A stretch of DNA of 64,000 nucleotides from a virus. The notes below the pieces were generated by a model. It worked only from the letters and a program-made list of their open reading frames with translations, had not been told where the DNA came from and made no database searches. The stretch is taken from the IMG/VR virus record IMGVR_UViG_3300022220_000003, positions 29,467 to 93,466 of that record, one strand, 5' to 3'. This document shows positions 32-33,777 of this stretch, piece by piece; within the stretch, counting starts at the first letter, position 1, and each line of letters starts with the position of its first letter. The position numbers and the translations under genes were made by a program.

Positions 32-51
32 CTATGACAACCGAGTCATAG
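32..51. promoter_or_regulatory. Palindromic upstream box CTATGAC-N6-GTCATAG (candidate enhancer/operator)
   Basis: ctatgac aaccga gtcatag; same motif at 1905, 1973, 2039, 7019, 7098, 7175. Confidence 0.7.
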
Positions 52-111
52 TCCACGGACCACCCGCAGGCTATAACCTTATTTTATCGCGGGTTTGCGG
101 CGGCGGCAAGT

Positions 112-140
112 TGGCATTGGTGTTGCATACTAAGTATGCA
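112..140 (+). promoter_or_regulatory. sigma54-type promoter fused to the palindrome TGCATAC-TAA-GTATGCA
   Basis: TGGCAT-TGGTG-TTGCA matches the -24/-12 consensus with exact GG-N10-GC spacing. Confidence 0.75.
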
Positions 141-241
141 GTTAACGCAGTCGAGCAGCACATGGGACGGCGTTGGCAACCGACACGGGCCGAGAGCGGG
201 GCCGGACTGAGACAACCAACCCAAACCCAAAGGACACCACC

Positions 242-592
242 ATGTTGACTGCTACCATCACCCGAAAAGCCGAAGTCGCCTACTTGTTCACCCTGTTGGA
301 CGGCTGTCGAGCCTCGGATCCTGCGTTGTTTCGGCGTTTGCGGCGAGCCTATCGAGTACTCAAGGAGATCGACCTCGCTAACAACGCCGTGCTTTGCGAG
401 GTGGAATATGAGAGCGAGGACGTGCCGCAAACCGTGATTCGGTTTCGGGGCACCTACTTTGCGGCCAACGGAGTCGGGAAGTTTTCAAAGCAGACCGTAA
501 TCCATGCGGGCGGCGACCACTTCGCGATCTACCTCTCGGACCGGCCGGGGCGTTACTGTGGCCTCGAAGGCTACACGCTACCCCTGTACTAG
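242..592 (+). CDS. Hypothetical early protein, paralog of 7297..7668
   Basis: AAAGGA RBS before ATG 242; shares VEYESEDVP and F.I.LS..PGR..G with the 7297 ORF. Confidence 0.7.
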   Translation: MLTATITRKAEVAYLFTLLDGCRASDPALFRRLRRAYRVLKEIDLANNAVLCEVEYESEDVPQTVIRFRGTYFAANGVGKFSKQTVIHAGGDHFAIYLSDRPGRYCGLEGYTLPLY

Positions 593-750
593 GCACCGCG
601 GGTTGCTCGGCCCCACCTCGGGGCCGGGCGGCGGGGGTGCCACGAGGCGCAGCGGGGCTCGGTCCTGTTTTTTGTTCCTTGCGGGGCTTGCCTACCTTGG
701 GATCATGTTTACCACGTTGACACCTTGAGGGCGCTAGGGTAGGGGGTGGT

Positions 751-1014
751 ATGAGCGACCTGGAAAAGTTGATAACCGCCAAGGAAACCTACGATTCGAC
801 ACCTACAAATCTCGACCTCGAGGACGCGTTGGAATCCGTACTAGGCACCCTCGAGCTGGTGGCCCGGGCTCAGGTCGCGGCGGCGTTGATCCAAGCCAAC
901 CCGAGTTTTGTCGAGGCTCCTAAACTGTTGGCCAACACCGTCAACAAGATCACGCTAGCGCTGGCGTTCAACCAAGGGGAGCAAACGGAGCAAACGAACA
1001 ATGTCGACCCTTGA
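751..1014 (+). CDS. Hypothetical protein
   Basis: Genome-typical codon use; overlaps the next ORF. Confidence 0.6.
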   Translation: MSDLEKLITAKETYDSTPTNLDLEDALESVLGTLELVARAQVAAALIQANPSFVEAPKLLANTVNKITLALAFNQGEQTEQTNNVDP

Positions 1015-1228
1015 TAGTTCGGTGTGGGCCGTGAGCCGGGCCCTCGAGAAGCGCAACGAAATCGAGCTGCGTCGGGTCAAGGCCCTCGAGTTTCGAAACC
1101 AGATCGAGATCTTGCGGGCGGTGGTGGAGTATTCCAACGGCGCGGGTGGCCTTGGGTCAAAAGACCTCGCCGATCGGGCGTTCGAGATCCACCAAATGCT
1201 CAAGGAGCGGCCCTATGCCAGATCCTAA
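1001..1228 (+). CDS. Hypothetical protein
   Basis: GGAG RBS; operon-like overlap. Confidence 0.6.
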   Translation: MSTLDSSVWAVSRALEKRNEIELRRVKALEFRNQIEILRAVVEYSNGAGGLGSKDLADRAFEIHQMLKERPYARS

Positions 1229-1493
1229 AGCCCCCTCGGTGGCCCTGCTCGAGGAACAACGCCGCCTAAACCCCGATCTCGCGGCCATCTATCGCCACCT
1301 CCTTGGGATCCGTGAGGACCTCGCCGTGATCACCATGGCGATTCTATCCGAGCGGGTGATCGCCGCCGGCGTACCCCTCGAGGACGTGCCCGTGAGGACC
1401 GCTAAGCTCTATTCGACCTACCTCCACAATGTGCACACCATCCGAGAGCGCCCCGAGCCCCCCACCGGGGGCCGGGGGCCCGCCGGGCCCTAG
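1215..1493 (+). CDS. Hypothetical protein
   Basis: AAGGAG RBS before ATG 1215. Confidence 0.6.
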   Translation: MPDPKAPSVALLEEQRRLNPDLAAIYRHLLGIREDLAVITMAILSERVIAAGVPLEDVPVRTAKLYSTYLHNVHTIRERPEPPTGGRGPAGP

Positions 1494-1765
1494 CGGTAGG
1501 GTAGGCCGCGGGCCTTATTGATGGCCCGAGTTGCGAGCCTACGCAATTGGGATCCTAGGTGATAATAGTTGTTGACCGATCCGGCCTCGCGATACCGCTG
1601 GCCCCGATCGGAGATCCGCAACACGAGGGCGCCGGTGGTGTGCACATAAATGTGCCCGTCAAAGGCCTCAACAACGCGATATTCTTGGCCCCTCGCGTTG
1701 AACGTGGCCGAGGCGGTAAAGAGGGGAAGTTGAGCAAAGTTGGTGTCTGTGTTCGTTGTGGTCAT
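1490..1765 (-). CDS. Hypothetical early protein, probably leaderless
   Basis: ATG overlaps the end of the promoter palindrome. Confidence 0.7.
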   Translation of the reverse strand: MTTTNTDTNFAQLPLFTASATFNARGQEYRVVEAFDGHIYVHTTGALVLRISDRGQRYREAGSVNNYYHLGSQLRRLATRAINKARGLPYR

Positions 1766-1793
1766 GCATACTTAGTATGCAACACCGGTGCCA
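1765..1793 (-). promoter_or_regulatory. sigma54-type promoter plus palindrome
   Basis: Minus strand reads TGGCAC-CGGTG-TTGCATACTAAGTATGC-ATG. Confidence 0.8.
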
Positions 1794-1850
1794 GGTTTTC
1801 TGAGGTATTGGGGCCGTATTGGGGTGATACCGGTATGATACCACGCCTAA

Positions 1851-1863
1851 AATCAAGCACTTG
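1851..1863 (+). promoter_or_regulatory. IHF-binding site
   Basis: AATCAAGCACTTG is an exact WATCAANNNNTTR match, lying between upstream boxes and promoter. Confidence 0.6.
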
Positions 1864-1904
1864 CGGCCGGCGGGAGAGCTCGGAGGTGTGTGGGTGCAAT
1901 ACCT

Positions 1905-2058
1905 CTATGACTTAGGTGTCATAGTTGTACTTGGTTGATATTACTAGGGAAACCGGTGATTTTACGTATTTACTATGACATTAAAGTCATAGGCTACTTG
2001 GTTGTTTTTGTTGAGCAAAGGGCGTTTTCGGTGGTTTGCTATGACATAAATGTCAGGG
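1905..2058. promoter_or_regulatory. Three CTATGAC-N6-GTCATAG boxes (1905-1924, 1973-1992, degenerate 2039-2058)
   Basis: Palindromic boxes at 68 and 66 bp spacing between divergent promoters. Confidence 0.75.
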
Positions 2059-2118
2059 TTGGTTATTGGGCCGTTGGCTTCGAGCCTAGTTTATCGGGTG
2101 TTTGCGGGCCTGGCAAGT

Positions 2119-2147
2119 TGGCACCGGTGTTGCATACTAAGTATGCA
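2119..2147 (+). promoter_or_regulatory. sigma54-type promoter plus palindrome
   Basis: TGGCAC-CGGTG-TTGCATACTAAGTATGC-ATG, identical to the 1765-1793 copy. Confidence 0.8.
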
Positions 2148-2797
2148 TGACCAACACGAACAAAACCACCGCCACCTACGAGAGCGCCCGGCAACTAGTC
2201 GCCACCCTCCGCGGGGAGCTCGAGCAGCTCACCTTGTTGCCCTCCGACACCCTCGAGATCTGCGATCAGTTGGTTGCTCGTGTCGAGCTCGCCAAGGCGC
2301 GGGCGGATAGCGCGCCTAGCGATATCGTGAAGTTTTCGCGGCCCGAGCCCGAGAGCGTGCTCGAGCGTGAAAAGGCGGCGGCCCGCCGGGCGGGTGCGGC
2401 GGCGGTGGTTGAGGACGCCAAGGCCAAGGCCGAGTTTCTGGCCAAGACTGCAGTCAAGGGCCCTCGCAACCCCGTGCACTTGGTTGAGGTCGAGGAGGGC
2501 CACCACGTTGACGTGATCCCCCGCAAGTCGATTCGTCTGCACGGCTTGGACCGCAACCGCCGCAACGGCCCGGTGGCCTACGATCGGACCTTCGAGATCG
2601 GCGACTCGGCCGAATACGACAGCTATAACACCTCATTTATCGGCCGGATCGTGGCCATCGGCGCCAAGACCGTGACGATTGACACCAAGATGGGTGAGCG
2701 GCGGCGATTGAAGCTCGAGCAGTTCTCGTGGCGCAACCGCCACTTTGACCTTGAGACCGTGGCCCGCCGCAACGCCGAGGAAAGTTATTACATCTAA
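2147..2797 (+). CDS. Hypothetical early protein, probably leaderless
   Basis: 216 aa ORF starting at the promoter palindrome; typical codon use. Confidence 0.75.
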   Translation: MTNTNKTTATYESARQLVATLRGELEQLTLLPSDTLEICDQLVARVELAKARADSAPSDIVKFSRPEPESVLEREKAAARRAGAAAVVEDAKAKAEFLAKTAVKGPRNPVHLVEVEEGHHVDVIPRKSIRLHGLDRNRRNGPVAYDRTFEIGDSAEYDSYNTSFIGRIVAIGAKTVTIDTKMGERRRLKLEQFSWRNRHFDLETVARRNAEESYYI

Positions 2798-2813
2798 CCA
2801 AGGAGCCAACACC

Positions 2814-3239
2814 ATGACCACCAACGTACGCACCGAGCGCAAGTTTGAGACCTACTCCCGCGGGGCCGAGCTCGTGAGAGCTATCAAGGCCATGTGGGAG
2901 TGCAACGAAGGTGACCGCGGGCGGCCCGATGGTAACACTCGGATCAACACTCGTATTGAGGCCCTAGCGGCCGAATACGATTTGACCTCGGTTGAGTGGA
3001 TCTATTGGGCCCGCATCGCCATGGGGTTAACGAAACCCAATCAACTTTACCTTTGCCGCGGCCTCCCAACACACTGGGTTGCCACCGACGCCAACAATCA
3101 GCCTTGGCTGTTTCCGGCGGTGGCGGGTGGGTGGAAGCACCGAACGCGGTTCGTTAGCCACCTCGAGGCCTTGATCGAGACCGACAACCTTTACGCCACC
3201 GGTACGGGGTGGTGCAAGTCTGAGGAGGGTTCACCATGA
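2814..3239 (+). CDS. Hypothetical protein
   Basis: AAGGAG RBS before ATG 2814. Confidence 0.7.
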   Translation: MTTNVRTERKFETYSRGAELVRAIKAMWECNEGDRGRPDGNTRINTRIEALAAEYDLTSVEWIYWARIAMGLTKPNQLYLCRGLPTHWVATDANNQPWLFPAVAGGWKHRTRFVSHLEALIETDNLYATGTGWCKSEEGSP

Positions 3240-3637
3240 CCACCAAAACCACAATGTGGGAAGTCTACAACCCGAGCTCGGGGCACAGTCTAGGCCATTA
3301 CAAGGCCGAGAGCTCCGAGGAGGCGATCGAGGCGTGCTGCCGGGCGGCGGGGTACGGGTCGGAGGCGGAGGCCTCCGCGGCCACCGGCGGGCGGGGGGTG
3401 CTCCGAGCTCTCGAGGTTGAGGAGGTCGATCTCAACACCGACAACGGATCCAAAACGCGGGCATACCTAGACGAATCAGGGTTTGCGACCTTCGAACATG
3501 CCAACGCCGCGGGCGATCGGATGATCGTCAAGGCCAAGGGCAACTGCCTCGAGATTGTGCCCGCGTCCGGTTGTTGTCTCAAATCCAATGTGGAGCACGC
3601 CGGCCGGGCCGTCTATATTTGGGTGCAACCATGTTGA
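3236..3637 (+). CDS. Hypothetical protein
   Basis: GAGGAGG RBS; ATGA overlap. Confidence 0.7.
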   Translation: MTTKTTMWEVYNPSSGHSLGHYKAESSEEAIEACCRAAGYGSEAEASAATGGRGVLRALEVEEVDLNTDNGSKTRAYLDESGFATFEHANAAGDRMIVKAKGNCLEIVPASGCCLKSNVEHAGRAVYIWVQPC

Positions 3638-4032
3638 CCATGTTCGTTGTTGGGTGGCGCTGCGGGTGCGGTTGCGAGACCTTGCACCGCATGTATCTGA
3701 AAACCTCACAGGAGGCCTTGGCGCTAACGGTGCAGCTCCGCGATAGCACCGCCACCGAGACCTGGGTGTGGCGAATGCGACTCCCGCGGCGCAAGGAGGC
3801 GATCCTAGTGGCGCTCAACTACTGCTGTGGGGCTCGATATCGAGCTCGAGGGGGAGCTCGAGCAGCTCGCGCACCTAGTGCGATCCGATTGGGAGGCCGA
3901 GGCGGAGGCCGAGGAGCCGACGCACGGCGAGGGCCCGCCCGGTGGCCGAGGAGCCGACGCACGGCGAGGGCCCGCCCGGAGGCCGAGGAGCCGACGCACG
4001 GCGAGGGCCCGCCCGGTGGCGAGTTTCATTGA
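3631..4032 (+). CDS. Hypothetical protein, possibly frameshifted and repeat-expanded
   Basis: Overlaps the upstream stop; C-terminal part crosses the 37-bp repeats. Confidence 0.45.
   Translation: MLTMFVVGWRCGCGCETLHRMYLKTSQEALALTVQLRDSTATETWVWRMRLPRRKEAILVALNYCCGARYRARGGARAARAPSAIRLGGRGGGRGADARRGPARWPRSRRTARARPEAEEPTHGEGPPGGEFH
3907..4017 (+). repeat. Tandem repeat, 3 x 37 bp
   Basis: ggccgaggagccgacgcacggcgagggcccgcccgg(t/a) at 3907, 3944, 3981. Confidence 0.95.
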
Positions 4033-4039
4033 GTGGCCT

Positions 4040-4055
4040 TGGCCCGCGGATTGCA
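4040..4055 (+). promoter_or_regulatory. sigma54-type promoter of the Fis-HTH gene
   Basis: TGGCCC-GCGGA-TTGCA; ATG 4068 lies 14 nt after the -12 C, the same offset as at 2147 and 7297. Confidence 0.6.
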
Positions 4056-4067
4056 AGGAGATCGGAT

Positions 4068-4310
4068 ATGACGAAAAAGGTATCCAAAACCACCCGAAAT
4101 GGCCATTTACTTGGACGGTTAGTCCGTGACGCGGAAAAGGCCATTATTATCCAATACATAGCCAAGCATCGCGGAAACAAGACCCACGCGGCCGAGGCCC
4201 TCGGGGTGACGCACCGGCATTTGCAGCGGCGGTGCGTGGCGCTCGGTATCGAGGGGGCGGACCTCGAGGGCGGCAACGTGGGTGTTGTAATCGTGGGCGG
4301 GCTTGTGTAG
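4068..4310 (+). CDS. Stand-alone Fis-family (HTH_8) DNA-binding protein
   Basis: AEKAIIIQYIAKHRGNKTHAAEALGVTHRHLQRR fits the E..xI..aL....GN...AA..LG..R.tL pattern of Fis/NtrC C-terminal domains. Confidence 0.85.
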   Translation: MTKKVSKTTRNGHLLGRLVRDAEKAIIIQYIAKHRGNKTHAAEALGVTHRHLQRRCVALGIEGADLEGGNVGVVIVGGLV

Positions 4311-4348
4311 GCTCGGGCCTACTCCGGATTTTCGGTTTTCGCGCAAAG

Positions 4349-4373
4349 CCCCCGGCTCTAGCAGGCCGGGGGC
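4349..4373. terminator. GC-rich hairpin, possible terminator
   Basis: gcccccggc...gccgggggc just downstream of the Fis-HTH gene. Confidence 0.4.
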
Positions 4374-4541
4374 GCCTATGCTAGGGTGGAGCCGGCCCCC
4401 GCGTCTCAATTCATGGTGATCAACCGCCCGCGGTAGCCTAAGCCATTGCCAACGAACGTTGATCGGGGTGTGGGGGCCACCAAATAGGTCAGGCATTTTC
4501 TCTTGTGAAAGTCCATTGATTTCGGTGTAGTGTGGCGCGCT

Positions 4542-4844
4542 ATGTCGATAGACGATCAGCAATTCATACGGATTCCTGAGCCCCATATCGGCTGGGATAC
4601 GGGGCTACTGCTGCGGGTGGTGGCTGGGGAGCTCCGCGGGGCGGAGCTCCGCCGCGAGGTGGATTATATCCACGCGGTGGAGCGGGTCTCGGTGGACATT
4701 TCGCAGCAACTAGTGAGGACGGCGCAAGGGTCGGTGAGGTGGGCGTTGATCGATCTCGTGGTCTCGGGCCTACGACGGCGTTTGCTCGAGCTCTCGAGCC
4801 GGCCGGCGGGGCCGTTGCCTCCTCGGGGTTGGCCTTGCGCTTAA
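4542..4844 (+). CDS. Hypothetical protein
   Basis: 100 aa ORF with plausible codon use. Confidence 0.5.
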   Translation: MSIDDQQFIRIPEPHIGWDTGLLLRVVAGELRGAELRREVDYIHAVERVSVDISQQLVRTAQGSVRWALIDLVVSGLRRRLLELSSRPAGPLPPRGWPCA

Positions 4845-4945
4845 ATGAAAAAGTCCAATGATTCCAAGAGGTAACGCCATTTGGGGGTGCTGGTGGGGGT
4901 TTGGGCTTAAATAATGTGGGCGGTCTAGTTTGGCGCGGAGCCCGG

Positions 4946-5326
4946 TTAATCCTGTTGGTTGCGGTCGCGGTCTCGGTCTAGGTCGCGGTCGCGGTCGCGG
5001 TCGTTTGGTCTCGATTTGTTCCGTATCCGGGCCAGGAGTGGTCCGGTCTCGTTTTCGGGCGGGGTTTCGAGCGGTGGGAGGTGGTCTCGTATGCCCGGGC
5101 GCCTTGGGCCACTGTAGCGGCCGGTATTCATGCGTTCAAATGGCCAAATCGAGTAGGCCTGGCCCGTGTCGGACTCGGCGAGGTCTGGGGTTACTTTCTC
5201 GAGGGTGTGGGGCCTCGTTTTGCACTGGCATACCGGGCAACGGATCTTGGTGGTCACGAGGTGGCACCGGTGGCACGTAGGGGCCGTGAAATAGGATCCG
5301 ATCGTGGTGTTGACGGGGCTCGGCAT
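4946..5326 (-). CDS. Zn-ribbon protein with an Asp-Arg repeat tail
   Basis: CHRC...CPVC; GAGGTG RBS; tail DRDRDRDLDRDRDR encoded by a 6-bp repeat at about 4961-5003. Confidence 0.6.
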   Translation of the reverse strand: MPSPVNTTIGSYFTAPTCHRCHLVTTKIRCPVCQCKTRPHTLEKVTPDLAESDTGQAYSIWPFERMNTGRYSGPRRPGIRDHLPPLETPPENETGPLLARIRNKSRPNDRDRDRDLDRDRDRNQQD

Positions 5327-5424
5327 ACTGCACCTCGAGGGGTTGATTGGGGGCAGCTTATCACGGGCTCGGGTGGAGGTTTACTGGCATGGTGTGACGT
5401 CACGATGTGTCAGGTTGTTGTGTA

Positions 5425-5440
5425 TGCATACACGATGCCA
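5425..5440 (-). promoter_or_regulatory. sigma54-type promoter
   Basis: Minus strand TGGCAT-CGTGT-ATGCA(TAC), upstream of the 5326 ORF. Confidence 0.55.
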
Positions 5441-6003
5441 AAAAATAATGTTCTGGGTTATTGGGGGGTTAGGTGGAGGGTATGGCGGGCTTTGTCAGGC
5501 TGTTTGGATGATGTGGTGCGTCATTGAGGTGGGGTTGGCGGTTTGGGGTTATTTAGGTGGGTTGTTGTCGATTTGGTTGATTGAAAAAGTGGTGTGTTTG
5601 TAGGGGTTTACAAGGGGGGCTTGACGTGACTTGTCAACGTTTTTCGAGGCGTAACGATTACAGGTAGTTAGCTACTTATGTAAGTGGTTATGGAAGTGGT
5701 GGGATGTGTCGAGTTGTGACAGGTGGCGGTGTAAGTCGGTGTAATCGTTGCGGTATTGGTATGGGAGGGCGTGGGGGGTGATTGGGTGTCTCGATTTGTG
5801 GACAGTGTTGCGGTTCCGAGTGTCTTGATTTGTGGACAGGGGTGGCGAAATTTCGCCAGGGGGGTTTTGGGGGTTTTGAGGGGGTGGGGTGAGGGATTGA
5901 GTTAGGGGGTGGGTTTGCGGCGGTTTTTGGGGCCTTAGGGGGCTTGTCACGTGGTGGTGTAGGGTGGTGGGGAGGTGTTTCGGTTGGTGGGCACGGCGGG
6001 AGA

Positions 6004-6085
6004 TGTGCACCATTTTGGAGCAGTTGGTGAGGGGTGTGCACCATTTTGGAGCAGGTGGGGTGAAATGTGCACCATTTTGGAGCAG
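6004..6085. repeat. Three 20-bp direct repeats at 31-bp period containing NtrC-like boxes
   Basis: tgtgcaccattttggagcag at 6004, 6035, 6066. Confidence 0.9.
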
Positions 6086-6377
6086 TTACAGGTTGGTGAG
6101 GTTGAGGGTATAAGGTTTTGTTATAGGTGGGTAGTGTTTTTGGGCGGTTTACTTATGGGTTTTGGGGGGTTGGGGGTTGTTTGTGGGCGGCCCGCGGCGG
6201 GGTGGACGCGACCGGCCTCGGGCCGGGCCTGGTGCTGCGGTGTAGGCCCCGCCCGCACCTCCGCACCGCTCCGCCCCTAAGCCCCGTCCTGTGCAGCTCT
6301 CGAAGAGCTCCCCGGCCTCGATCTCGGTTCCCAGTGGTTCGTCCCTATGGGAGCTCGAGCTCGGCGAGCCGTGCGAC

Positions 6378-6725
6378 CTAACGAGGGCCAACACCGTACA
6401 CACGGCGGTCGAGGGCGATCCGCAGCTCGGCATGGACGCGTTTGGCAACCTCAAACTTGGTGGCCGCGTCGTTGAGCTCGGCGTTAGTCTCGCCGCCCAT
6501 GAACATGGCCCACAAGCTACCAACGCCCCCGGTGGCGTCTGCGATAGCTCGCTTACGCTCGGCCGCCTCCTCAACCTCGGCCGCGGCCTCGGCGATGGCC
6601 TTGGCGAGCTCGGCACGATAGATAAGCTCGGCGCTACGGTCGGTGCCCGCGGCGGCCCGGTAGGCGGCCTGGGTGTTCTCGACGACGGTGGCGAGGGCGG
6701 CGGCGGTGGTAATAGTCTTGGTCAT
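6378..6725 (-). CDS. Hypothetical alanine-rich helical protein
   Basis: GAGGA RBS before ATG 6725 (MTKTITTAAALAT...). Confidence 0.65.
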   Translation of the reverse strand: MTKTITTAAALATVVENTQAAYRAAAGTDRSAELIYRAELAKAIAEAAAEVEEAAERKRAIADATGGVGSLWAMFMGGETNAELNDAATKFEVAKRVHAELRIALDRRVYGVGPR

Positions 6726-6736
6726 GGTCTCGATCC

Positions 6737-6868
6737 TCAGAGCACCACCGCGGCGGCGGCCTCGTTGCGGGCGGCGAGCTTGGGGCGGCGGGTGCCCTCG
6801 CCACCGACAACCAAGACCACAATCGCGACCACCGCGATAACTGCCTTGATTGTCTTGTTGCGTGTCAT
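6737..6868 (-). CDS. 43-aa membrane-anchored peptide, probably leaderless (not in the ORF track)
   Basis: MTRNKTIKAVIAVVAIVVLVVGGEGTRRPKLAARNEAAAAVVL; ATG at the promoter palindrome. Confidence 0.6.
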   Translation of the reverse strand: MTRNKTIKAVIAVVAIVVLVVGGEGTRRPKLAARNEAAAAVVL

Positions 6869-6896
6869 GCATACTTAGTATACAACAACCGTGCCA
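6868..6896 (-). promoter_or_regulatory. sigma54-type promoter plus palindrome (variant -12 TTGT)
   Basis: Minus strand TGGCAC-GGTTG-TTGTATACTAAGTATGC-ATG. Confidence 0.65.
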
Positions 6897-6943
6897 GAGC
6901 TCGGGGGTGGCACGGCGGGTGCAACTCGAGGAGGGCGACACAA

Positions 6944-6956
6944 TATCAAGGGGTTA
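6944..6956 (+). promoter_or_regulatory. IHF-binding site
   Basis: TATCAAGGGGTTA, exact consensus match. Confidence 0.6.
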
Positions 6957-7018
6957 CGGGCCGAGAGCTCCCCGCCGAGCTCCCCGAGGGCCGTGTTTAG
7001 CGTGTAGGGCCAATACCT

Positions 7019-7194
7019 CTATGACTTAGGTGTCATAGTTGAGATTAGGGGCTAACTACTCGTAATGAGGGCGAAAATGCCAATTGGTACTAGACTACTA
7101 TGGCAATCATGTCATAGTTGAGGATTGGGCTAACTGCACGTAATAGCGAAAGAATCCTAGGTTAGACCGATTTACTATGGCATCTATGTCATAG
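7019..7194. promoter_or_regulatory. Three CTATGRC-N6-GTCATAG boxes (7019-7038, 7098-7117, 7175-7194)
   Basis: 79 and 77 bp spacing; 7011-7041 is identical to 1897-1927. Confidence 0.75.
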
Positions 7195-7227
7195 CTATGA
7201 TGCTCTGCGTTATCAAGGTGATTGGCC

Positions 7228-7240
7228 TAAGTGCTTGATA
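7228..7240 (-). promoter_or_regulatory. IHF-binding site
   Basis: Minus strand TATCAAGCACTTA, exact consensus match. Confidence 0.6.
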
Positions 7241-7268
7241 TTGTGTTGAGAGCTCCTCGCCACGGTAT

Positions 7269-7297
7269 TGGCATCAGGGTTGCATACTAAGTATGCA
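7269..7297 (+). promoter_or_regulatory. sigma54-type promoter plus palindrome
   Basis: TGGCAT-CAGGG-TTGCATACTAAGTATGC-ATG. Confidence 0.8.
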
Positions 7298-7668
7298 TGA
7301 GCACAACGAGAGGAAACGAGACAATGAACGCAATCACCACCGAGATCAAGTTTGCCAAGGCTGAGATGGCCGCGATTAACTTCCAAGGTGCAGGCCCCGA
7401 GCTTGGACGACGTTTTTGTCACCTCCGCCGGTTGGTTAAGCTGCTCAAGGAGCTCGATCGGCTCAACGGGTTGGGACTCGCCGAGCTCGTCACGGTTGAA
7501 TACGAGTCCGAGGACGTCCCTAGCACATGTGTTGTTTTTTGGGCGAACACTGATGCCACGGCCGATATCGTGGGCAAACGCTCGGGCCAAGAAGTTGCGC
7601 GGCTTTCATCGCGTGAATTCTTTATCGAGCTCTCGTTGGCCCCCGGGCGTATGCCTGGTTTCTTTTAG
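7297..7668 (+). CDS. Hypothetical early protein, paralog of 242..592 (alternative start 7324)
   Basis: Shared VEYESEDVP motif. Confidence 0.7.
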   Translation: MSTTRGNETMNAITTEIKFAKAEMAAINFQGAGPELGRRFCHLRRLVKLLKELDRLNGLGLAELVTVEYESEDVPSTCVVFWANTDATADIVGKRSGQEVARLSSREFFIELSLAPGRMPGFF

Positions 7669-8246: not shown

Positions 8247-8654
8247 TCAGGCGGCCGACTGCTCGAGGCCCACCGCGTCCACAAACGCGGCAAGGTTGGC
8301 CTCGGTGGTGTTGGACGGCTGCCAAGTATGCCCGAGCAGGTCCACCAAGGCTCGGAGGGATGCGGCGATGTTAGGTTCACCTCGCCGAGCTCCCCACAAC
8401 CAAAGGGCCCGCGTCCGAGGTGAGGCCTTAAACGTTGGAATCCTTACATATTTTGAGTACACCCGAACGCCGTTCCAAGTCTTGGCCCGCGGGTCGGACG
8501 GTTTGGACACCGCATCGGCTGTTTTGGGGTCACCGCAACACTCTAAAATCATTGATAAAAGCAGGTGGCACGCGTCGTCACAGCTCTCGATACCGTGCGC
8601 GTGCCCCCATTGTGCCAAGGTTTTAAATTGCTGGTCTGTCAATCTCATAATCAT
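8247..8654 (-). CDS. Putative tandem ribbon-helix-helix DNA-binding protein
   Basis: Two strand-helix-helix-like units (IMRLTDQQFKTLAQWGHAHG...; PTFKASPRTRALWLWGARRGEPNIAASLRALVD); divergent from the primase. Confidence 0.5.
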   Translation of the reverse strand: MIMRLTDQQFKTLAQWGHAHGIESCDDACHLLLSMILECCGDPKTADAVSKPSDPRAKTWNGVRVYSKYVRIPTFKASPRTRALWLWGARRGEPNIAASLRALVDLLGHTWQPSNTTEANLAAFVDAVGLEQSAA

Positions 8655-15475: not shown

Positions 15476-15491
15476 TGGCACGTGCATTGCA
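15476..15491 (+). promoter_or_regulatory. sigma54-type promoter
   Basis: TGGCACGTGCATTGCA is a perfect TGGCACG-N4-TTGCA in an intergenic gap. Confidence 0.7.
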
Positions 15492-15552
15492 ACCTTATAA
15501 TAATCTCGCGCCGCGGTTTCCCCGCAACGCTCGAAACTGCGGGGGTGGGACC

Positions 15553-24535: not shown

Positions 24536-25146
24536 CAGTGGCCGAGCAGGCCGAGGTGATTCAAGCGGCGGGGCCTCAGACCAAAGACGCGGAGGCGAGC
24601 CTCGATTTTATCAAGCGGCTCGAAATAACCACCGGGGCCGATTTCGCGGGCGCGGTGCGTATGGCGGCCCAAGTCAAAACCAAGTTTGGTGAGGTGGACG
24701 CGAAGCGCAAAGAGTACACCTCCAAGCTCGCCGAGATCGTGGACCAATTCAACGGCGAATTCAAACCGGGGCTCGAGGCCCTCAAGGAGGCCGAGAAAAC
24801 CCTCAAGGATAAGCTTGCGGGGTTTGCCAAGGCCCAAGCCTATACGCGGGCCCAAATGCTTCGCAAGGCCTCGGAGGCGGCGGAGGCCGGGAAGCAAGCC
24901 AAAGCAGACGCCATGATCGCCGAGGCGGCCGGGTACGGGGTGCCCGAGGTCAAAGGGTGCTCGATCCGGGACGTGTGGACCGGTGAGGTGGTGGACGCCG
25001 AGGCGATCCCCCGCGAGTATTTGATCGCCGATGAGAAGGCCCTCAAGGCGGTTACCAAGGCGAGAAAATGCGACCCACAGATCCCCGGGTGGCGGGCTTA
25101 TCCTCAACCCTCGGTGACGATCACGGTGTCACGGGTGCGGGTATGA
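24520..25146 (+). CDS. Coiled-coil phage protein (Gam/Gp157-like)
   Basis: Long helix then VD...IP.EYL..DEKAL...IPG. Confidence 0.55.
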   Translation: MSSSLAVAEQAEVIQAAGPQTKDAEASLDFIKRLEITTGADFAGAVRMAAQVKTKFGEVDAKRKEYTSKLAEIVDQFNGEFKPGLEALKEAEKTLKDKLAGFAKAQAYTRAQMLRKASEAAEAGKQAKADAMIAEAAGYGVPEVKGCSIRDVWTGEVVDAEAIPREYLIADEKALKAVTKARKCDPQIPGWRAYPQPSVTITVSRVRV

Positions 25147-25340
25147 TCGTTGAGGTGGACGCGGATAGGTTAGAGGTTGCAGGAAAAGAGGCCCGCAAGG
25201 CCCTCGCGGCCCTACGGTCCCAAGGCCACCCCGATGGGTGCTCGTGTAAACTTTGCACTGCGGGGCGTTATCTCGACTCGGCCTATAGGCGACTTGAGGT
25301 GAGCCTCAAGGATTCGAGCAACGGGCATGTCAGAGGATAG
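25143..25340 (+). CDS. Hypothetical protein
   Basis: ATGA overlap; H...CSCKLC. Confidence 0.5.
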   Translation: MIVEVDADRLEVAGKEARKALAALRSQGHPDGCSCKLCTAGRYLDSAYRRLEVSLKDSSNGHVRG

Positions 25341-26929: not shown

Positions 26930-28396
26930 ATGCCCGAGCCGATCCCAATGCTCCCCAGCGGTGACGCCTTGGCCGACGCCGGGCGGGATGCATTGATCGA
27001 CTATTACGACCATTGCAAATCGATGGCCGGCGAGTGGGTCTATCGCCAGGTGGTGGATAACTGCCGGGCGGATATCTTGGCGGCGATCCTCGGGTATGAG
27101 GTGCAGCCGTTTCATTTGGCCCTGATGGTGTTTCAAATGCTGCACCCCGACAATTTGCAGCTCTGTTTTCGGGGTGCAGGCAAAACCACCGTTTGCACGG
27201 TGACCCGGGCGATCTTTATGCTGATCCGCAACCGGGACTTGCGGATCCTCATAGCCTCGAAAACCAAGGGCAACGCCGAGAGCATGCTCAAGGAGATCAA
27301 GGGACACCTCGAGGAAAACCAGCGACTGATCGAGGTCTTTGGGTTGTTTTACGATCCGGCGGTGGTGACCAAATGGGATAACACCGAGATCGAGATCCTC
27401 GGGCGCAGCCGCAAGACCAAAGAGAGCTCGATCATAGCAATCGGTGTTTCGGGTGCCTTGGCCTCCAAACACGTTGACGTGATCTTGGCCGATGACTTGG
27501 TGGACGAAGAAAACGCCCGTACCAAGTATATGCGAGACCGCGTCAAGCAGTGGTATTATCAGATCTTGGATCCGGTCCTCGAGCCACCCGAGCCCGGGTT
27601 TTTGCACCGCGGTGAGTTTCACCGGTTGGGGACCAGATATCATTTTGATGACCTATACGGGCATCTGATGTCGAATGAGCTCAAGGAGCACCACCAAGTG
27701 ATCCCCGCGCTCGACTCAAACGAGCGCAGCCCGTGGCCCGAAAAATTTCCGCCCGATTGGTTCAAAGCCAAAAAGGAAAAATCAGGTACGATTATATTCA
27801 ACGCTCAATACCAGTGCGATACCGAGGCAATGAAGGGCGAGATCTTCCAATATGACGATTGCCAACAGGTTTCGGCTGACGACGTGCCCGCGGGTCTCAA
27901 GGTCTACATGGGTGTTGACTTGGCGATCACCGAGCAGGAACAAAACGACATGTTTTGCATAGTGGTGGGAGGTCTAGACCAGGCCGAAAACTGGTATGTG
28001 ATTGACTATTTCGAGGGCCACCTCCGATTTGCAGCCCAAACCGCGGCGATCAAGCGCTACTACAAAAAACACGATCCTATCCGGGCGGCCATTGAGACCA
28101 ATAGCTACCAGGCGGCCCAATACCAGACCCTCAAAGATGAGGATCAGAGCTTGCGGCTTATGCCGGTGCACACCGAGAAAGACAAGATCACCAGAGCTTG
28201 GAAGGTCTCACCGAGGTTTGAAAATAAGCAGATGTTTTTCGTCAAGGGGGGCAATATCCACAAGCTGATCGAGGCGATCGTTTTATTCCCCTCGCATCGA
28301 TACAAGGACCCGTTTGACGCCTTGGACATGATGCTCAGGGCCAGCAAAGTGCGTCGACGCCGCAAGCGGCGACAACGTGAACCGGGGATCATCTGA
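26930..28396 (+). CDS. terL: Terminase large subunit
   Basis: RGAGKTT, ILADDLVD, GTRYH.DD, nuclease GVDLA...D..DA. Confidence 0.95.
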   Translation: MPEPIPMLPSGDALADAGRDALIDYYDHCKSMAGEWVYRQVVDNCRADILAAILGYEVQPFHLALMVFQMLHPDNLQLCFRGAGKTTVCTVTRAIFMLIRNRDLRILIASKTKGNAESMLKEIKGHLEENQRLIEVFGLFYDPAVVTKWDNTEIEILGRSRKTKESSIIAIGVSGALASKHVDVILADDLVDEENARTKYMRDRVKQWYYQILDPVLEPPEPGFLHRGEFHRLGTRYHFDDLYGHLMSNELKEHHQVIPALDSNERSPWPEKFPPDWFKAKKEKSGTIIFNAQYQCDTEAMKGEIFQYDDCQQVSADDVPAGLKVYMGVDLAITEQEQNDMFCIVVGGLDQAENWYVIDYFEGHLRFAAQTAAIKRYYKKHDPIRAAIETNSYQAAQYQTLKDEDQSLRLMPVHTEKDKITRAWKVSPRFENKQMFFVKGGNIHKLIEAIVLFPSHRYKDPFDALDMMLRASKVRRRRKRRQREPGII

Positions 28397-30186
28397 TGAC
28401 AGACAGCACCACCACCGCCACCCGAGTGAGCAACGCCACCAACAAGCGGGCCCTGCGGGCCGTTGTGATCGGCATGCGCAAGCGTGCGGCCGAGGTGCCG
28501 CACCCTAAAAACCTCGAGGAGGGGCGGCCCGAGCCGGGGCAATCCAAGGCCCTCACCGAGGACCCGTTCGAGGCTTTGACGGCCGAGGGTCGGTTGATTG
28601 AACCACCGTTTGACCTGCTCACCTTGGCCATGTTGCCCGAGCATTCGAGCGAGCTCGGCCAATGCGTCGAGGCCTACGAGGTTAATATCGAGGGGTTTGG
28701 GTTTCGGTTTGTGCCGCGGATCCGATCCAATGTAGATATGGCCAAGCTCGATCCGGTGTTGCGTGACGCAGTGCAGCTCGAAAAAACCGAGCTCGAAAAT
28801 TTTTTTGCCTACTGCTCTGGAAGGCTCTCGTGGGTTGAGACGCGGCGGCGGGTGCGAAAGGACCTCGAAACTACAGGCAACGGGTATCTAGAGGTGGTCC
28901 GCAACGCGGCGGGCAAGATCCAAGGGCTCAACCACCTACCAAGTTATCAAATGCGCCTTGGTGGCCTCGATCAAGAGGCGGTCAAGGTGGCATTGCCGAT
29001 TCACGAGCTCCAAACCGATGGGTCTATCAGGATTGTGCGGGTGCCCTCGTGGGAGCGGTTTCGGCGGTTTGCGCAATCACGATCTTTGTTGCTACGCCAT
29101 GCCACCCATGTGGGCCGATACGCGATCCGGTGGTTCAAGGAATTTGGGGATCCACGGGTGTATGACTACGAATCGGGCGAGGAGGCCAAGGGCGAGGATA
29201 TCGCCAAGCTCCCACCCGAGCGGCGGGCCAACGAGTTGATCCATTTCAAGCTTTACAGCCCCCGCAGCCCGTACGGCCTACCTCGGACGATTGGCAATCT
29301 ATTGAGTATCTTTGGCGCGAGAGCGGCCGAGGAGATCAACTACACCACGTTTCGCAACAACAACATACCATCAATGTTGCTCTTGGTATCCAATGGCCAG
29401 CTCACCGAGGGATCAATTGATCGGATCGAGAGCTTTGTCGAATCCCAGATCCAGGGGTCGGACAACTACAGCAAATTTTTACTCGTTGAGGCCGAGGGGC
29501 TCGGCGAGGAGGGCGAGGACACGGGCCACGTCAAGGTCGAGGTTGAGCGGCTTGTTGAGCAACAACACAAAGACGCCCTGTTCCAAAACTACTCGGGCAA
29601 CGCAGACAGCCGGATCCGGCGGGCCTTCCGATTGCCACCGATCCTTGTGGGCCGGGCCGATGATTACACCCGGGCCACGGCGGACACCTCGAGGCGATTG
29701 GCAGACGAGCAGATCTTTGCTCCCGAGCGCAATATCCACGACGATACGGTCAACCGGTTGTTATTTCCCGACATGGGGATCGTGTACCACAAGTACAAGA
29801 GCAACACCCCCAACACCACTGACAACGCCGAGCTAGTCAAGATCCTCGGCGGGGCTGAGAAAACCGGTGGCATGACCCCAAGGATCGCCCGGTTGTTGCT
29901 CGAGGATATTCTTGGCCAAGACTTGCCAGGGTTCCCGGCCGAGTTTGCAGACAAGGCCGATATGCCGTTTAGCCTGCTCATGGCCGAGGCGGTGCAAAAC
30001 AAGGCAGACCCGGCGGAGCCGGGGCAACAGGTAACGGCGATCAAGGCCTTGGACTTTATCGAAAAACTGACCGGTGGGGAGCTCGGCGAAATCGAGGAGG
30101 CCGAGCTCGCCAAAACCGCGGTGCAAATCAATCGGCACTTCGAGAAACGATGGCGCCGAGAGGTCAAGGCTAGTCTAGCGGGATAA
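28396..30186 (+). CDS. Portal protein
   Basis: D.ETTGNGYLEV.RN, ELIHFK, YGLP, F.NN.IP, AFRLPP..VG; follows TerL. Confidence 0.92.
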   Translation: MTDSTTTATRVSNATNKRALRAVVIGMRKRAAEVPHPKNLEEGRPEPGQSKALTEDPFEALTAEGRLIEPPFDLLTLAMLPEHSSELGQCVEAYEVNIEGFGFRFVPRIRSNVDMAKLDPVLRDAVQLEKTELENFFAYCSGRLSWVETRRRVRKDLETTGNGYLEVVRNAAGKIQGLNHLPSYQMRLGGLDQEAVKVALPIHELQTDGSIRIVRVPSWERFRRFAQSRSLLLRHATHVGRYAIRWFKEFGDPRVYDYESGEEAKGEDIAKLPPERRANELIHFKLYSPRSPYGLPRTIGNLLSIFGARAAEEINYTTFRNNNIPSMLLLVSNGQLTEGSIDRIESFVESQIQGSDNYSKFLLVEAEGLGEEGEDTGHVKVEVERLVEQQHKDALFQNYSGNADSRIRRAFRLPPILVGRADDYTRATADTSRRLADEQIFAPERNIHDDTVNRLLFPDMGIVYHKYKSNTPNTTDNAELVKILGGAEKTGGMTPRIARLLLEDILGQDLPGFPAEFADKADMPFSLLMAEAVQNKADPAEPGQQVTAIKALDFIEKLTGGELGEIEEAELAKTAVQINRHFEKRWRREVKASLAG

Positions 30187-31221: not shown

Positions 31222-33777
31222 ATGCAATTGAGCACGACCCCAACCCGCAGGCGAGCTCGCCGAGCTCGTGTTGTCAAAACCGTGACCTCGCAAGACCTCG
31301 CCACAAGCGGCAAGCTCAAGGATGCGGGTTTGCCCGGTGGGAGTGGGATCACCGAGTTGTGGGGTCTAGCGGTGAGCAAAACGGCGGCGGCCGAGCTCTT
31401 GGTGGGCAAGATCAACACTGTCGCCAAAACGACCGATTTGGACCTATCAAAACGCACGATGGTGGTGCTCGCCGAGGGCCGGGCCCTCGGGGAGGTGCAG
31501 CTCGGCAAAAAGGTTGAGGCGAGGACGTGGGCAATCAAATCGGCCAAGGTTTTTGACCGGCCCAAGCCCACCAACATACCGGCGGTGGCCAATGGTGTGG
31601 TTAAAGGGGTGCGCCTGCTCGAGCGGCTCAAGGCTACAGCAATAGAGGAACCGGTAACCAAGAGCCAGGCCAAAACCTACAATCCGCGGCCAGTGGTCGA
31701 TTCGGTGCTCTTGGCGGACGTGCGGGCCTTAAAAGAGTGGGGCGAGGAGGTGGCTTTCAAAAAGGCGCTCACCGAGGTGGAGCGGCGGGGCTTGCAGCTC
31801 CCCCAGCTCGAGCTTGCCCCCGATACCGATCCCGAGATCTTGACGTCCACCGAGCTCTTGGAGGCCCACCGAGCGCTACATGTGGCCAAGGGGTGGAGCT
31901 CCGAGGACGCGATCAACGTGCATGCCCAGATAGTGGCCGAGCTCGCCGATCGCGGCATGCCTCACCCCGAGCCACCTCCGGGCCTTGATCAACGCTCCGA
32001 GCCGTTGGAGCCGGGCGAGGTCCAGATCACAAAAGCAGCGGCCGAGGTGGCCTTGGCCGAGCTCGTGGCCTCGGTCGAGCAATATCCGGTTTTGGTCCAT
32101 AAACGTGTTGAGGGCCGGGCGGTGGTGGTGGCCAAGACCGGGGATCAAGTCAAAGTGGTCGGTGAGGATGGGACCGATCATACCGCGGAGGTGCCCGAGG
32201 TGGCCCGAGCGGTGGCAGCTCTCAAGGCCGAGGCGGTGGAGCTCGAGGGGGTGCTCGAGCCGTGGCACGGTGGCGAGGTGTTGCAGGTCCAAGATCTCGT
32301 TTATGCCGGCCGGGATCTTCGAGATTGGCCGGTATCCAAGCGGCTCGAGCGATTGGCCGAGCTCGGTATCGAGCAGGCCACCGCGTCAACGCCGAGCCGG
32401 CGGATACCTGTTAACGAGCTCCCCACAATCGAGGCCACAGACGGCGAGGCTCTCGAGCGGGCGATCCGTGTCGTCAAATCCTTACCCGGGGCGGCGGGCG
32501 TGGTGGTGAAGCCCGCAACTTCTATTGACCCGGGCGAGTGGCTCGAGCTCGAGGCCGAGCCGGTGGCCAAGGTTGCGCTCTCGGGGCCGGTGCCTTTTGT
32601 GTGGCGTGGGTCCGAGATCTTGATCGGTACCCCCGGCGGGCGGAGGGTCGAGCGGTGGCAGCTCGAAGGGGAAGCGGCCGAGGCACAGATCGCCAAACGC
32701 CGGGCGCCAATGTCGTGGGGTGCACTGCGGGCCGAGTCCACCGAGCGAGGGGAGGCGGAGCTCGGGGCGGTCAAGCCGTGGTGCCGCGAGTATTTTTTGC
32801 GAGGTGAGCAGGCGGCCCACCGGTTGGTGGTCCGCAAAATGCAGATCGGCGAGCTACAAAAGGCGGTCCATTCGTACACCCAATGCATGGTTTGCCGAGC
32901 GGCCCCTGTAATTGACGTGTTGTGGGCCGATGGCCGCGGCCGAGCTTGGTTTTGCAAGGGGTGTTATCCCAAATGGATCCACAAGGGCGGAGGCGCCAAG
33001 ACTCTCGAAGTGATTGGCACCAAGGCAATTATCGGTGGCCGAGCTCCCGCCAAGTATTCAGACCGCCACAACCGTGTCACAACCACCAAGGCCGCGAGCC
33101 CCCACGAGCTCGGCGAGTGGATTGTAATCCGTTCAAACGACCCCACGCCCATGGTGTTGCAGGCCGAATCAGTAACCAAGCGATGGATCCCACCGCTTGG
33201 TGTGTCAGCCTTGCCGCGATCTGTGGCCGAGCAAGTACCGCTTGATCTCGCCTATTGGCAAGCAGGTACTTTGGTGGAGGCCCGCGAGCTCCGTGATCAA
33301 CTTGTGTCAAAGATTGACAAGGGGGAGGTTGAGATCGATTACTCCGCGGCGTACACACCCAAGCCCGCGTCAGAACCTGTCACACAACCAACTACCGAGC
33401 CGGCGGAATTGTTTGTTTCCATTGCCAAAATTGACACCGACCGGCAAATCGTGACAGGTATAGTCTTAGAACCGGGCGAGGTCGATGCTCAAAACGATAC
33501 TATCACTGCCGAGGTTATCGAAAAAGCATCGATCAATTTTCTGTCCCGGTATAATTCCGAGACTCAACTAGGGTTTATGCACAAAATTTTTGGCGAGATC
33601 GGATTGCAGCTCGCCGCCAGTTGGGTAGCACTGAGTAACCAGACGCTTGGCGGCAAAAAGGTCAAGCGAGGCTCGTGGCTTATGAGCGTCAAGGTTGTGG
33701 ACCCCAAGTTGTGGGCTCGCGTCAAAAAGGGCGAGTTTGCGGGGTTCTCGATCGGCGGTGTTGCAAAGGTGCGATAA
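31222..33777 (+). CDS. Multidomain head protein: degenerate ATP-dependent ligase-like domain plus C-terminal XkdF-type prohead protease
   Basis: RQIVTGIVLEP...DAQND...MH...GSW...VKKGEFAGFSIGG. Confidence 0.8.
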   Translation: MQLSTTPTRRRARRARVVKTVTSQDLATSGKLKDAGLPGGSGITELWGLAVSKTAAAELLVGKINTVAKTTDLDLSKRTMVVLAEGRALGEVQLGKKVEARTWAIKSAKVFDRPKPTNIPAVANGVVKGVRLLERLKATAIEEPVTKSQAKTYNPRPVVDSVLLADVRALKEWGEEVAFKKALTEVERRGLQLPQLELAPDTDPEILTSTELLEAHRALHVAKGWSSEDAINVHAQIVAELADRGMPHPEPPPGLDQRSEPLEPGEVQITKAAAEVALAELVASVEQYPVLVHKRVEGRAVVVAKTGDQVKVVGEDGTDHTAEVPEVARAVAALKAEAVELEGVLEPWHGGEVLQVQDLVYAGRDLRDWPVSKRLERLAELGIEQATASTPSRRIPVNELPTIEATDGEALERAIRVVKSLPGAAGVVVKPATSIDPGEWLELEAEPVAKVALSGPVPFVWRGSEILIGTPGGRRVERWQLEGEAAEAQIAKRRAPMSWGALRAESTERGEAELGAVKPWCREYFLRGEQAAHRLVVRKMQIGELQKAVHSYTQCMVCRAAPVIDVLWADGRGRAWFCKGCYPKWIHKGGGAKTLEVIGTKAIIGGRAPAKYSDRHNRVTTTKAASPHELGEWIVIRSNDPTPMVLQAESVTKRWIPPLGVSALPRSVAEQVPLDLAYWQAGTLVEARELRDQLVSKIDKGEVEIDYSAAYTPKPASEPVTQPTTEPAELFVSIAKIDTDRQIVTGIVLEPGEVDAQNDTITAEVIEKASINFLSRYNSETQLGFMHKIFGEIGLQLAASWVALSNQTLGGKKVKRGSWLMSVKVVDPKLWARVKKGEFAGFSIGGVAKVR

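Follow-up and report, generated by a model that had tools for sequence, protein, structure and literature searches.

Repeated divergent promoter cassettes in a phage early region point to possible host sigma54 control from shared palindromic boxes

The early region of the uncultured sediment phage studied here raises the question of which polymerase and which activator read its promoters. The window that we analysed is a stretch of 64,000 nucleotides, bases 29,467-93,466 of the linear IMG/VR virus record IMGVR_UViG_3300022220_000003 (93,466 bp, G000:C1, estimated completeness 92%, GC content 58.5%), window coordinates being genome coordinates minus 29,466. A sequence-only reading of this window had described two homologous divergent cassettes and a lone promoter at position 112 as a complete sigma54 enhancer-type regulatory system. 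We found that the whole genome carries five homologous divergent cassettes, with 10 outward promoters, 15 palindromic boxes and 10 copies of a 17-bp palindrome; each cassette consists of two outward-facing promoters with three boxes between them. With modest confidence, we favour the reading that these are host sigma54 promoters driven by a host enhancer-binding protein from the boxes. "Complete" was too strong a word for what, from the letters, appears as a layout of motifs.

The cassettes lie at genome positions 24982-25333 (C1), 27485-27858 (C2), 29235-29606 (C3), 31231-31613 (C4) and 36334-36763 (C5), all within 24.9-36.8 kb. Outside them, zero boxes and zero copies of the palindrome (TGCATACTWAGTATGCA, at most one mismatch, whole genome) were detected. 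The two cassettes described earlier, C4 and C5, had been correctly placed, and the promoter at 112 proved to be the right half of C3; the sequence-only reading saw part of the array because the window start cuts through C3, of which genome 29235-29497 lies before the window, and two further cassettes are located upstream. The 31-bp identity that it had noticed between cassettes can be read in the sequence around box 1 (CAATACC...AGTTG). Below, L and R denote the left and right promoters of a cassette.

Taken in promoter orientation, the ten cores read TGGCAY-N5-(T/G)TG(C/T)A, with GTGCA in C2L and C2R and AAGCAT instead of TGGCAT in C3L. Nine of the ten match TGGCAY-N5-KTGYA, and the GG-to-GC spacing is fixed at the sigma54 value. 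Within the window, the -24/-12 elements were found at 112-127 on the plus strand (C3R, TGGCATTGGTGTTGCA), 1778-1793 on the minus strand (C4L, TGGCACCGGTGTTGCA), 2119-2134 on the plus strand (C4R) and 6881-6896 on the minus strand (C5L, TGGCACGGTTGTTGTA), while the C5R element (TGGCATCAGGGTTGCA) and its palindrome together occupy 7269-7297 on the plus strand. The exact pattern TGGCAY-N5-TTGYA has six matches in the window against 0.10 expected from shuffled sequence: the five copies noticed earlier, all of which are present, and a sixth at 15476 that had not been listed. A generic score for TGGCACG-N4-TTGCW, in which GG and GC were obligatory and at least 10 of 12 positions had to agree, gave 21 matches in the genome against 7.8 expected from first-order shuffles, 14 of them within 23.8-36.8 kb. 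All ten cores are oriented outward, towards an open reading frame (ORF) that starts 0-104 nt past the palindrome.

Two other readings of the core were tried and rejected. Neither a sigma70 -35/-10 pair nor an actinobacterial leaderless -10 (TANNNT) suits it: the spacer would be 9 or 15 nt long and the start would lie within the ORF. Sigma70 is further disfavoured by the T preceding TGGCA, which varies at the left promoters. Separately, a degenerate eleventh promoter-like core (TTGGCATCGTGTATGCATAC, window 5421-5445, minus strand), with ATGCA as its -12 part, was observed about 100 nt upstream of the minus-strand gene 4946-5326.

Boxes of the form CTATGRC-N6-GTCATAG occupy seven sites in the window, against 0.27 expected from shuffled sequence. 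They lie at 32-51 (box 3 of C3), at 1905-1924, 1973-1992 and 2039-2058 (C4; the first reads CTATGAC-N6-GTCATAG and the last is degenerate, with 2 mismatches) and at 7019-7038, 7098-7117 and 7175-7194 (C5), so that three boxes per cassette, the degenerate 2039 copy included, are present just as the earlier reading had them. Box centres are spaced by 66/68 bp in C1-C4 and by 79/77 bp in C5 (box 2 follows box 1 by 79 bp and box 3 follows box 2 by 77 bp), which is one helical turn more. Taking the 12th base after the -12 C as the start position, the nearest box centre is found at -96.5 for C1L, C3R and C4R, -98.5 for C2R, -110.5 for C5R, -116.5 for C1R, -136.5 for C2L and C3L, -147.5 for C4L and -158.5 for C5L. 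All of these distances except that of C5R (110.5), i.e. nine of the ten, deviate by no more than about 2 bp from 96.5 + n x 10.3 bp. The boxes are thus phased palindromes at -96.5 to -158.5, inside the interval of about 80-200 bp upstream of the core in which an enhancer was looked for, and this phased geometry matches what would be predicted for looping from enhancer to promoter that depends on the face of the helix. The box arms are conserved and the central 6 bp are free to vary, as would be expected for recognition by a dimeric helix-turn-helix (HTH) protein.

Matches to the IHF consensus WATCAA-N4-TTR number seven in the window against 0.88 expected from shuffled sequence, and the cassettes, which make up 1.9 kb, hold four of the eight exact matches of the genome. 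The three that had been reported earlier are exact and in their reported places: AATCAAGCACTTG at 1851-1863 on the plus strand, centred about -90 from the C4L start; TATCAAGGGGTTA at 6944-6956 on the plus strand, about -80 from the C5L start; and TATCAAGCACTTA at 7228-7240 on the minus strand, about -61 from the C5R start. C3L also has an exact site, and sites with one mismatch were found at C1R and C2L. IHF sites, exact or with one mismatch, occur at all promoters whose box lies at least 110 bp away and at none of the four close ones (-96.5 or -98.5). Every cassette site lies between box and core and runs antiparallel to the transcription of its promoter, the single relative orientation that had been claimed for the window. 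The layout of core, IHF site and upstream palindromes is genuine; it is fivefold, helically phased and conserved in a relative, the contig L048.

The cassettes might instead be recombination or mobility units, for example sites of the phage tyrosine recombinase with IHF as accessory factor, which we regard as very improbable. In favour of it, the two ends of a cassette are perfect inverted copies of each other, C1 has the opposite orientation to C2-C4, genes behind different cassettes include paralogues and a tyrosine recombinase is encoded. The inverted ends are, however, explained by two outward promoters that each abut a start codon, and the duplications require ordinary homologous recombination only. 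Partner sites of tyrosine recombinases need identical overlap regions, and the boxes are ruled out as such sites because their central 6 bp differ between copies.

A feature that the sequence-only reading had missed is the invariant 17-bp palindrome (TGCATACTAAGTATGCA), which spans about -13 to +4 of each promoter, the -12 TGCA being its first arm. In the window it lies at 124-140 (C3R), 1765-1781 (C4L, promoter 1765-1793, minus strand), 2131-2147 (C4R, promoter 2119-2147, plus strand) and, with one mismatch, 6868-6884 (C5L, promoter 6868-6896, minus strand). In C1L, C4L, C4R, C5L and C5R, its final A is also the first base of an ATG, at a distance of 14 nt from the -12 C. For C4L (first gene of 91 aa, 1490-1765, minus strand), the ATG consists of the last palindrome base plus TG, and the mRNA would therefore be leaderless or nearly so. 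The ATG also abuts the palindrome in the first genes of C4R (216 aa, no family, 2147-2797, plus strand) and C5L (a 43-aa hydrophobic peptide, 6737-6868, minus strand). The C5R first gene (7297-7668, plus strand) begins at the palindrome end and has a second in-frame start at 7324 with a ribosome-binding site; such an additional start, preceded by a ribosome-binding site and 23-26 nt after the palindrome, is found in C1L and C5R. In C1R and C3L, an ATG with a ribosome-binding site lies about 26 nt after the palindrome. The remaining promoters, C2L, C2R and C3R, are followed by a leader of about 105 nt that is conserved among them, is predicted to form two hairpins and also occurs in L048 (copies at window 138-241, plus strand, for C3R; L002 8856-8962, plus strand, and 8381-8487, minus strand; L048 145-250). 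Comparison of the four sequences revealed compensatory changes in 4 of the 15 hairpin pairs. The C3R first gene behind this leader (242-592, plus strand, 116 aa, no Pfam family) has a paralogue at 7324-7668 and is homologous to the gene in L048. No relative of the early-gene family A5 was found in IMG/VR.

We also observed a second promoter class, WGGCAY-N5-TTGCAMCCTTATWAKA, which has the same GG-N10-GC register, a TATAAT-like run after it and no boxes upstream. Its sites are at window 15476-15505, genome 23858 and 26409 (both minus strand), L048 about 745-775 and G001 6111-6140. This class is kept in two relatives, and in L048 it stands just upstream of an HTH_8 gene. Its downstream sequence is different (ACCTTATWATA), and the part common to both classes is the sigma54-like GGCAC-N5-TTGCA. 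The opposite-strand site at genome 26409 points into a tRNA-like gene with an aberrant anticodon loop (ARAGORN, L002 7299-7368, plus strand).

Close relatives of the phage are few, and known from fragments. L048 is a 1,190-bp metagenome contig that encodes a homologue, 69% identical, of P0001, a small HTH_8 protein of our phage described below. Its order is box, IHF-like site, TGGCACCGGGGTTGCATACTTAGTATTCA (TGGCAC-N5-TTGCA plus palindrome), the 105-nt leader and a homologue of the window 242-592 gene, beyond which come the second-class promoter, the HTH_8 gene and a further pair of boxes spaced by about 67 bp. In the other relative, G001, the primase is 67% identical and the contig ends match our phage on either side of 19.3-38 kb, the early region being absent from the contig. 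At the G001 contig start (L010 1-190), beside the place where the early region would be expected, we noted six tandem copies of a 30-bp unit, GGTCGACCCACGTCGAGGCCAACCGTCGGA. A DNA-level search with the early region among 50,697 deposited phage records gave no match. The exact 17-mer palindrome had seven matches in IMG/VR, all AT-rich and unrelated, and the promoter plus half-palindrome pattern had one, unrelated and inside a coding region.

When IMG/VR was scanned for nothing more than a pair of boxes at a spacing of 44-66 bp, three other high-GC viral contigs emerged, G002-G004, each with TGGCAC-type motifs 25-240 bp from its boxes. In G002 and G003, the boxes lie upstream of the sigma54-like motifs. 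G003 is a complete 43-kb genome with unrelated proteins, and both of its box-linked motifs (L023 about 2900-2940 and 6932-6965) have an ATG exactly 14 nt past the -12 C, a leaderless arrangement identical to that of our phage. An all-against-all BLAST detected no protein common to all box-bearing genomes (our phage, G002, G003, G004 and the more distant contig G005 C4). Apart from our phage, HTH_8 was found in none of G002-G004, and HTH_3 occurred, among the phage contigs, in G002 only. Because the box-bearing phages share no DNA-binding family or BLAST-detectable protein, a host factor is weakly favoured over a phage factor as the binder of the boxes.

The phage genome (92% complete) has no match to Sigma54_DBD, Sigma54_activat (PF00158), a T7-type RNA polymerase or Sigma70_r2. 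Since no polymerase or sigma family was detected, the host polymerase must serve the phage, and since there is no AAA+ activator gene, the activator would be host-derived if the promoters are of the sigma54 type. The sequence-only reading had placed the activator either in the host or in phage DNA outside the window; the second option falls with the genome-wide result, and the first stands on the condition just given.

The same reading had overlooked several small phage proteins that could act on these sites. P0001 (window 4068-4310, plus strand, 80 aa) is essentially a stand-alone Fis/NtrC-type HTH_8 domain (PF02954, 39.6 bits against a cut-off of 22). A second HTH_8 protein of 100 aa (35.9 bits) is encoded at genome 17809-18111 on the minus strand, an XRE-type HTH of 79 aa at genome 15601-15840 on the plus strand and an HU/IHF-family protein of 90 aa at genome 9474-9746 on the plus strand. 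Neither HTH_8 protein is a full-length enhancer-binding protein, in which an AAA+ domain carrying the sigma54-contact loop is joined to the HTH. Among homologues of P0001 at E <= 1e-3, none was longer than P0001 itself and no full-length activator shared its domain; the closest relatives form three clusters of 63-77-aa proteins. The P0001 gene follows C4R on the same strand after about 1.9 kb and has its own sigma54-like motif (TGGCCCGCGGATTGCA, 4040-4055, plus strand, 11 of 12 consensus positions) 12 nt before the start codon. Just upstream of this gene, inside an ORF, we observed a 37-bp tandem repeat (window 3903-4020, 3.2 copies, 96% matching).

Modelled as a homodimer, P0001 was predicted to be symmetric with an ipSAE of 0.49 against 0.00 for the best control, a mark reached by 20 of 30 proteins solved as same-chain pairs and by 1 of 23 solved as single chains; this score may mirror likeness to known structures, because solved NtrC/Fis dimers exist. 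Across three runs, contact agreement was at least 66% and pLDDT at least 66. P0001 is a candidate for the factor that binds the palindrome, which, on the sigma54 reading, is probably an operator for a phage HTH dimer. The NtrC consensus is TGCACC-N5-GGTGCA, 17 bp long. Three identical copies of TGCACCATTTTGGAGCA, 31 bp apart at window 6006-6084, are each one base off this consensus (3 copies against 0.04 expected) and belong to about 950 bp of G/T-rich non-coding sequence (window 5340-6290). With two HTH_8 proteins on one side and two classes of sites in NtrC format on the other, a pairing of the two sets is an obvious candidate.

Several observations, here and among the cellular matches below, weigh against host sigma54 control. 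C3L is devoid of the -24 GG (AG instead) with the remainder of the promoter intact, and loss of the -24 GG is expected to inactivate a sigma54 promoter. The palindrome is conserved throughout the ten copies with at most one mismatch, a pattern that fits a phage-specific promoter equally well; sigma54 promoters normally show no conservation between -11 and +4. Neither our phage nor G001-G004 encodes a cognate activator with the Sigma54_activat AAA+ domain, and the phage XRE-type or HTH_8 proteins could bind the boxes in place of a host activator. In G004, the boxes lie downstream of the sigma54-like motifs. G005 C4, a 33-kb contig in a small metagenome-assembled genome (GC 74%) and a distant relative of our phage (DUF6011 protein 41-47% identical), has six boxes between divergent genes and no correctly spaced GG-N10-GC; it retains TGGCAC and GTGCATACT out of that register. 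Between these two, at L045 6590-6650, we noted a GC-rich inverted repeat (CCCCGC...GCGGGG), apparently a hairpin inserted into what had been a -24/-12 core. A pattern search across the phylum of the metagenome-assembled genome that contains L045 gave 0 of 401 genomes and is uninformative, genomes of this phylum being about 1 Mb.

One way to accommodate such observations is to take the block of about 30 bp, TGGCAY-N5-TTGCATACTAAGTATGCA, as a phage-specific promoter whose -24/-12 likeness is coincidental or convergent. Its reader would be either the host RNA polymerase, diverted by a phage factor that has escaped recognition, or a phage polymerase that has likewise done so, and the boxes would serve a phage regulator, for example the XRE-type HTH or one of the HTH_8 proteins. 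We consider this rather unlikely. The conservation from -13 to +4 resembles that of T7-like or phiKZ-like phage promoters, C3L retains the block without the GG, and G005 C4 retains boxes and TGCATACT without the GG-N10-GC spacing; three small HTH proteins are encoded by the phage, and a novel factor could hide among its early ORFs, most of which have no family. Yet no RNA polymerase or sigma family is detectable in the phage, and the parts that make up the sigma54 consensus (TGGCAC, TTGCA and the 12-nt register) recur before a different downstream sequence in the second promoter class, at window 15476, genome 23858 and 26409, in L048 and in G001. The same sigma54-like parts are present in unrelated box-bearing phages without the palindrome, and phased sites at -96 to -160 accompanied by IHF sites are typical of looping activators, not of T7-like promoters.

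The cellular matches raise a further reading. A box-pair scan of 185,579 species genomes, which would miss imperfect or differently spaced sites, returned 18 loci, mainly in Bacillota and Coriobacteriia, the G005 C4 contig being one of the matches. In none of the 18 did a sigma54 motif lie within 900 bp of the boxes, and the scan revealed no host enhancer; several of the loci have the appearance of operators at sigma70-type promoters of the ordinary kind, and ATGAC-N6-GTCAT is a generic, common type of operator. When a single box and a sigma54 motif within 20-50 bp were required, 21 IMG/VR loci were obtained, against 27 with the promoter reversed, showing no general association of box and motif at this stringency, which is too loose to show one. 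The boxes could be operators of a phage repressor that silences a lysogenic phage or plasmid prophage, with part of the transcription arising at overlapping sigma70 promoters, as at the dual sigma70/sigma54 promoter of glmY, and with sigma54-like cores that are secondary or inactive. We judge this improbable. An integrase-family gene, a ParA gene and the XRE-type HTH make a temperate or plasmid lifestyle possible, and the box palindrome is of the same type as the operator-like bacterial matches. CATACT overlaps the -12 element, as the -10 hexamer CATAAT does in glmY, the right promoters have a weak -35 (CTGGCA or GCGGCA) 17 nt upstream, and leftward sigma70-like sites (TTGCCA-17-TAAACT and TTGCCG-17-TAAAAT) occupy a homologous place in C4 and C3. 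The boxes, however, lie 96-280 bp from the starts and overlap no strong -35/-10 pair, a correctly spaced -35 is missing from the left promoters, and a sigma70 scan returned 8 sites against 3.1 expected, a weak excess. Taken with the IHF sites, the one-turn increments in spacing and distance speak for looping to the promoters rather than for a roadblock.

Whether a host could supply sigma54 depends on its lineage. The sequencing runs containing the phage DNA are sediment or estuary DNA metagenomes, none recorded as RNA. The phage encodes a primase-helicase, a family-A DNA polymerase, a portal protein, a tail-spike, an endolysin (PG_binding_1 + Peptidase_M15_4), a short tyrosine recombinase, a thymidylate kinase, a DNA methylase, a radical-SAM protein and ParA. 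Its portal protein and polymerase share just 24-36% identity with those of cultured phages, and phages of Rhizobium, Rhodobacter and Pseudomonas are among the best portal matches. The nearest relatives of ParA are plasmid genes of Gamma- and Betaproteobacteria (51-53% identity). A protein with a T7 gp5.9-like RecBCD-inhibitor domain is encoded at L001 15837-16196 on the plus strand. ParA, the portal matches and the gp5.9-like domain are weak pointers to Pseudomonadota, the phylum having sigma54, IHF and NtrC. That these pointers only hint at the host, whose rpoN is presumed, also counts against host sigma54 control.

Returning to the reading that we favour, host sigma54 holoenzyme would sit on each of the ten cores as a closed complex, silent alone. 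On the three boxes, a host AAA+ enhancer-binding protein would assemble as three dimers, equal to one hexamer, and the box-bound hexamer would serve both flanking promoters through DNA looping. Where the box is at least 110 bp from the start, the IHF site would bend the DNA, the bender being either host IHF or the phage HU/IHF-like protein. Transcription would start 12-14 nt after the -12 GC, which in five promoters is at the ATG or 1-2 nt before it and would yield leaderless mRNAs. Later, a phage HTH dimer may occupy the -12/+1 palindrome and close the ten promoters together, the likeliest candidate binder being one of the two stand-alone NtrC/Fis-type proteins. We put forward this complete picture, in which host sigma54 and a host activator or signal gate all ten early promoters and phage DNA-binding domains related to NtrC close the regulon on the 17-bp operator, as a tentative possibility.

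Sigma54 promoters stay silent until fired by an ATP-hydrolysing activator. The small early genes probably await a host regulator, because the phage encodes neither sigma54 nor an ATPase activator. If this is true, one host enhancer-binding protein, and hence a host physiological signal, would decide whether infection proceeds. By placing all its early genes behind such promoters, a phage would make the onset of infection, or its departure from a silent state, depend on a single host signalling pathway, and host sensing of this type would differ from repressor-based switches. Being compact, bidirectional and tightly phased, with a candidate operator and repressor, the cassettes are also possibly useful for the engineering of genetic circuits.

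Known enhancer-dependent systems offer several points of comparison. For NtrC at glnAp2 and NorR at norVW, the hexamer is assembled from DNA-bound dimers, and dimeric HTH_8 domains recognise palindromes about 17-20 bp long; oligomer assembly is helped by the presence of several sites, of which NorR requires three within a divergent intergenic region. In length (17 bp) and in its outer TGCA...TGCA, the cassette palindrome agrees with the NtrC consensus, but neither it nor the box matches the NtrC or NorR consensus, the box spacing is 66-79 bp compared with about 30 bp there, and the phage HTH_8 proteins consist of the DNA-binding domain only. As with lambda CI/Cro, a symmetric operator, here a candidate, overlies the promoter core of co-regulated early promoters, with small dimeric HTH proteins encoded nearby; here, in contrast, the promoter class appears to be -24/-12 and the candidate binder belongs to the Fis/NtrC HTH_8 family.

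Among described layouts, that of the GlrR (QseF)-dependent glmY/glmZ genes of Enterobacteriaceae comes closest to the cassettes, with three palindromic activator sites more than 100 bp upstream, IHF sites between and a -24/-12 core (PMC3045617). In both systems a -10-like hexamer overlaps the -12 element, CATAAT in glmY and CATACT in the phage cassettes, whereas the GlrR sites read TGTC-N10-GACA and the phage boxes CTATGAC-N6-GTCATAG (PMC3045617). Unlike glmY/glmZ, the phage has one enhancer per two divergent promoters, a box spacing of 66-79 bp, five repeats and no linked activator gene.

In YuA, a phage of Pseudomonas aeruginosa described by Ceyssens et al. (2008), sigma54 promoters reportedly serve the particle-formation and lysis region; in our phage, by contrast, ten promoters serve a region of small early genes. 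In PMC5053324 and PMC10914365, YuA development is described as dependent on host sigma54, one sigma54-like promoter (P015) is re-mapped, and phage use of sigma54 is termed "rare but not unprecedented", with YuA as the example. Both phages have no RNA polymerase of their own, and both would use host sigma54 promoters, as the motifs suggest for ours. For YuA, we found in these two papers no mention of enhancer cassettes of the repeated three-site kind seen here, of a -12/+1 palindrome or of leaderless starts (PMC5053324, PMC10914365). The sequence-only reading had known of no described phage programme of this type: our literature searches likewise turned up no account of a phage early region that contains repeated bidirectional enhancer cassettes, although the sigma54-dependent phage YuA had been published (PMC5053324, PMC10914365). 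A strategy in which early genes would wait for a host regulator is so far known for very few phages.

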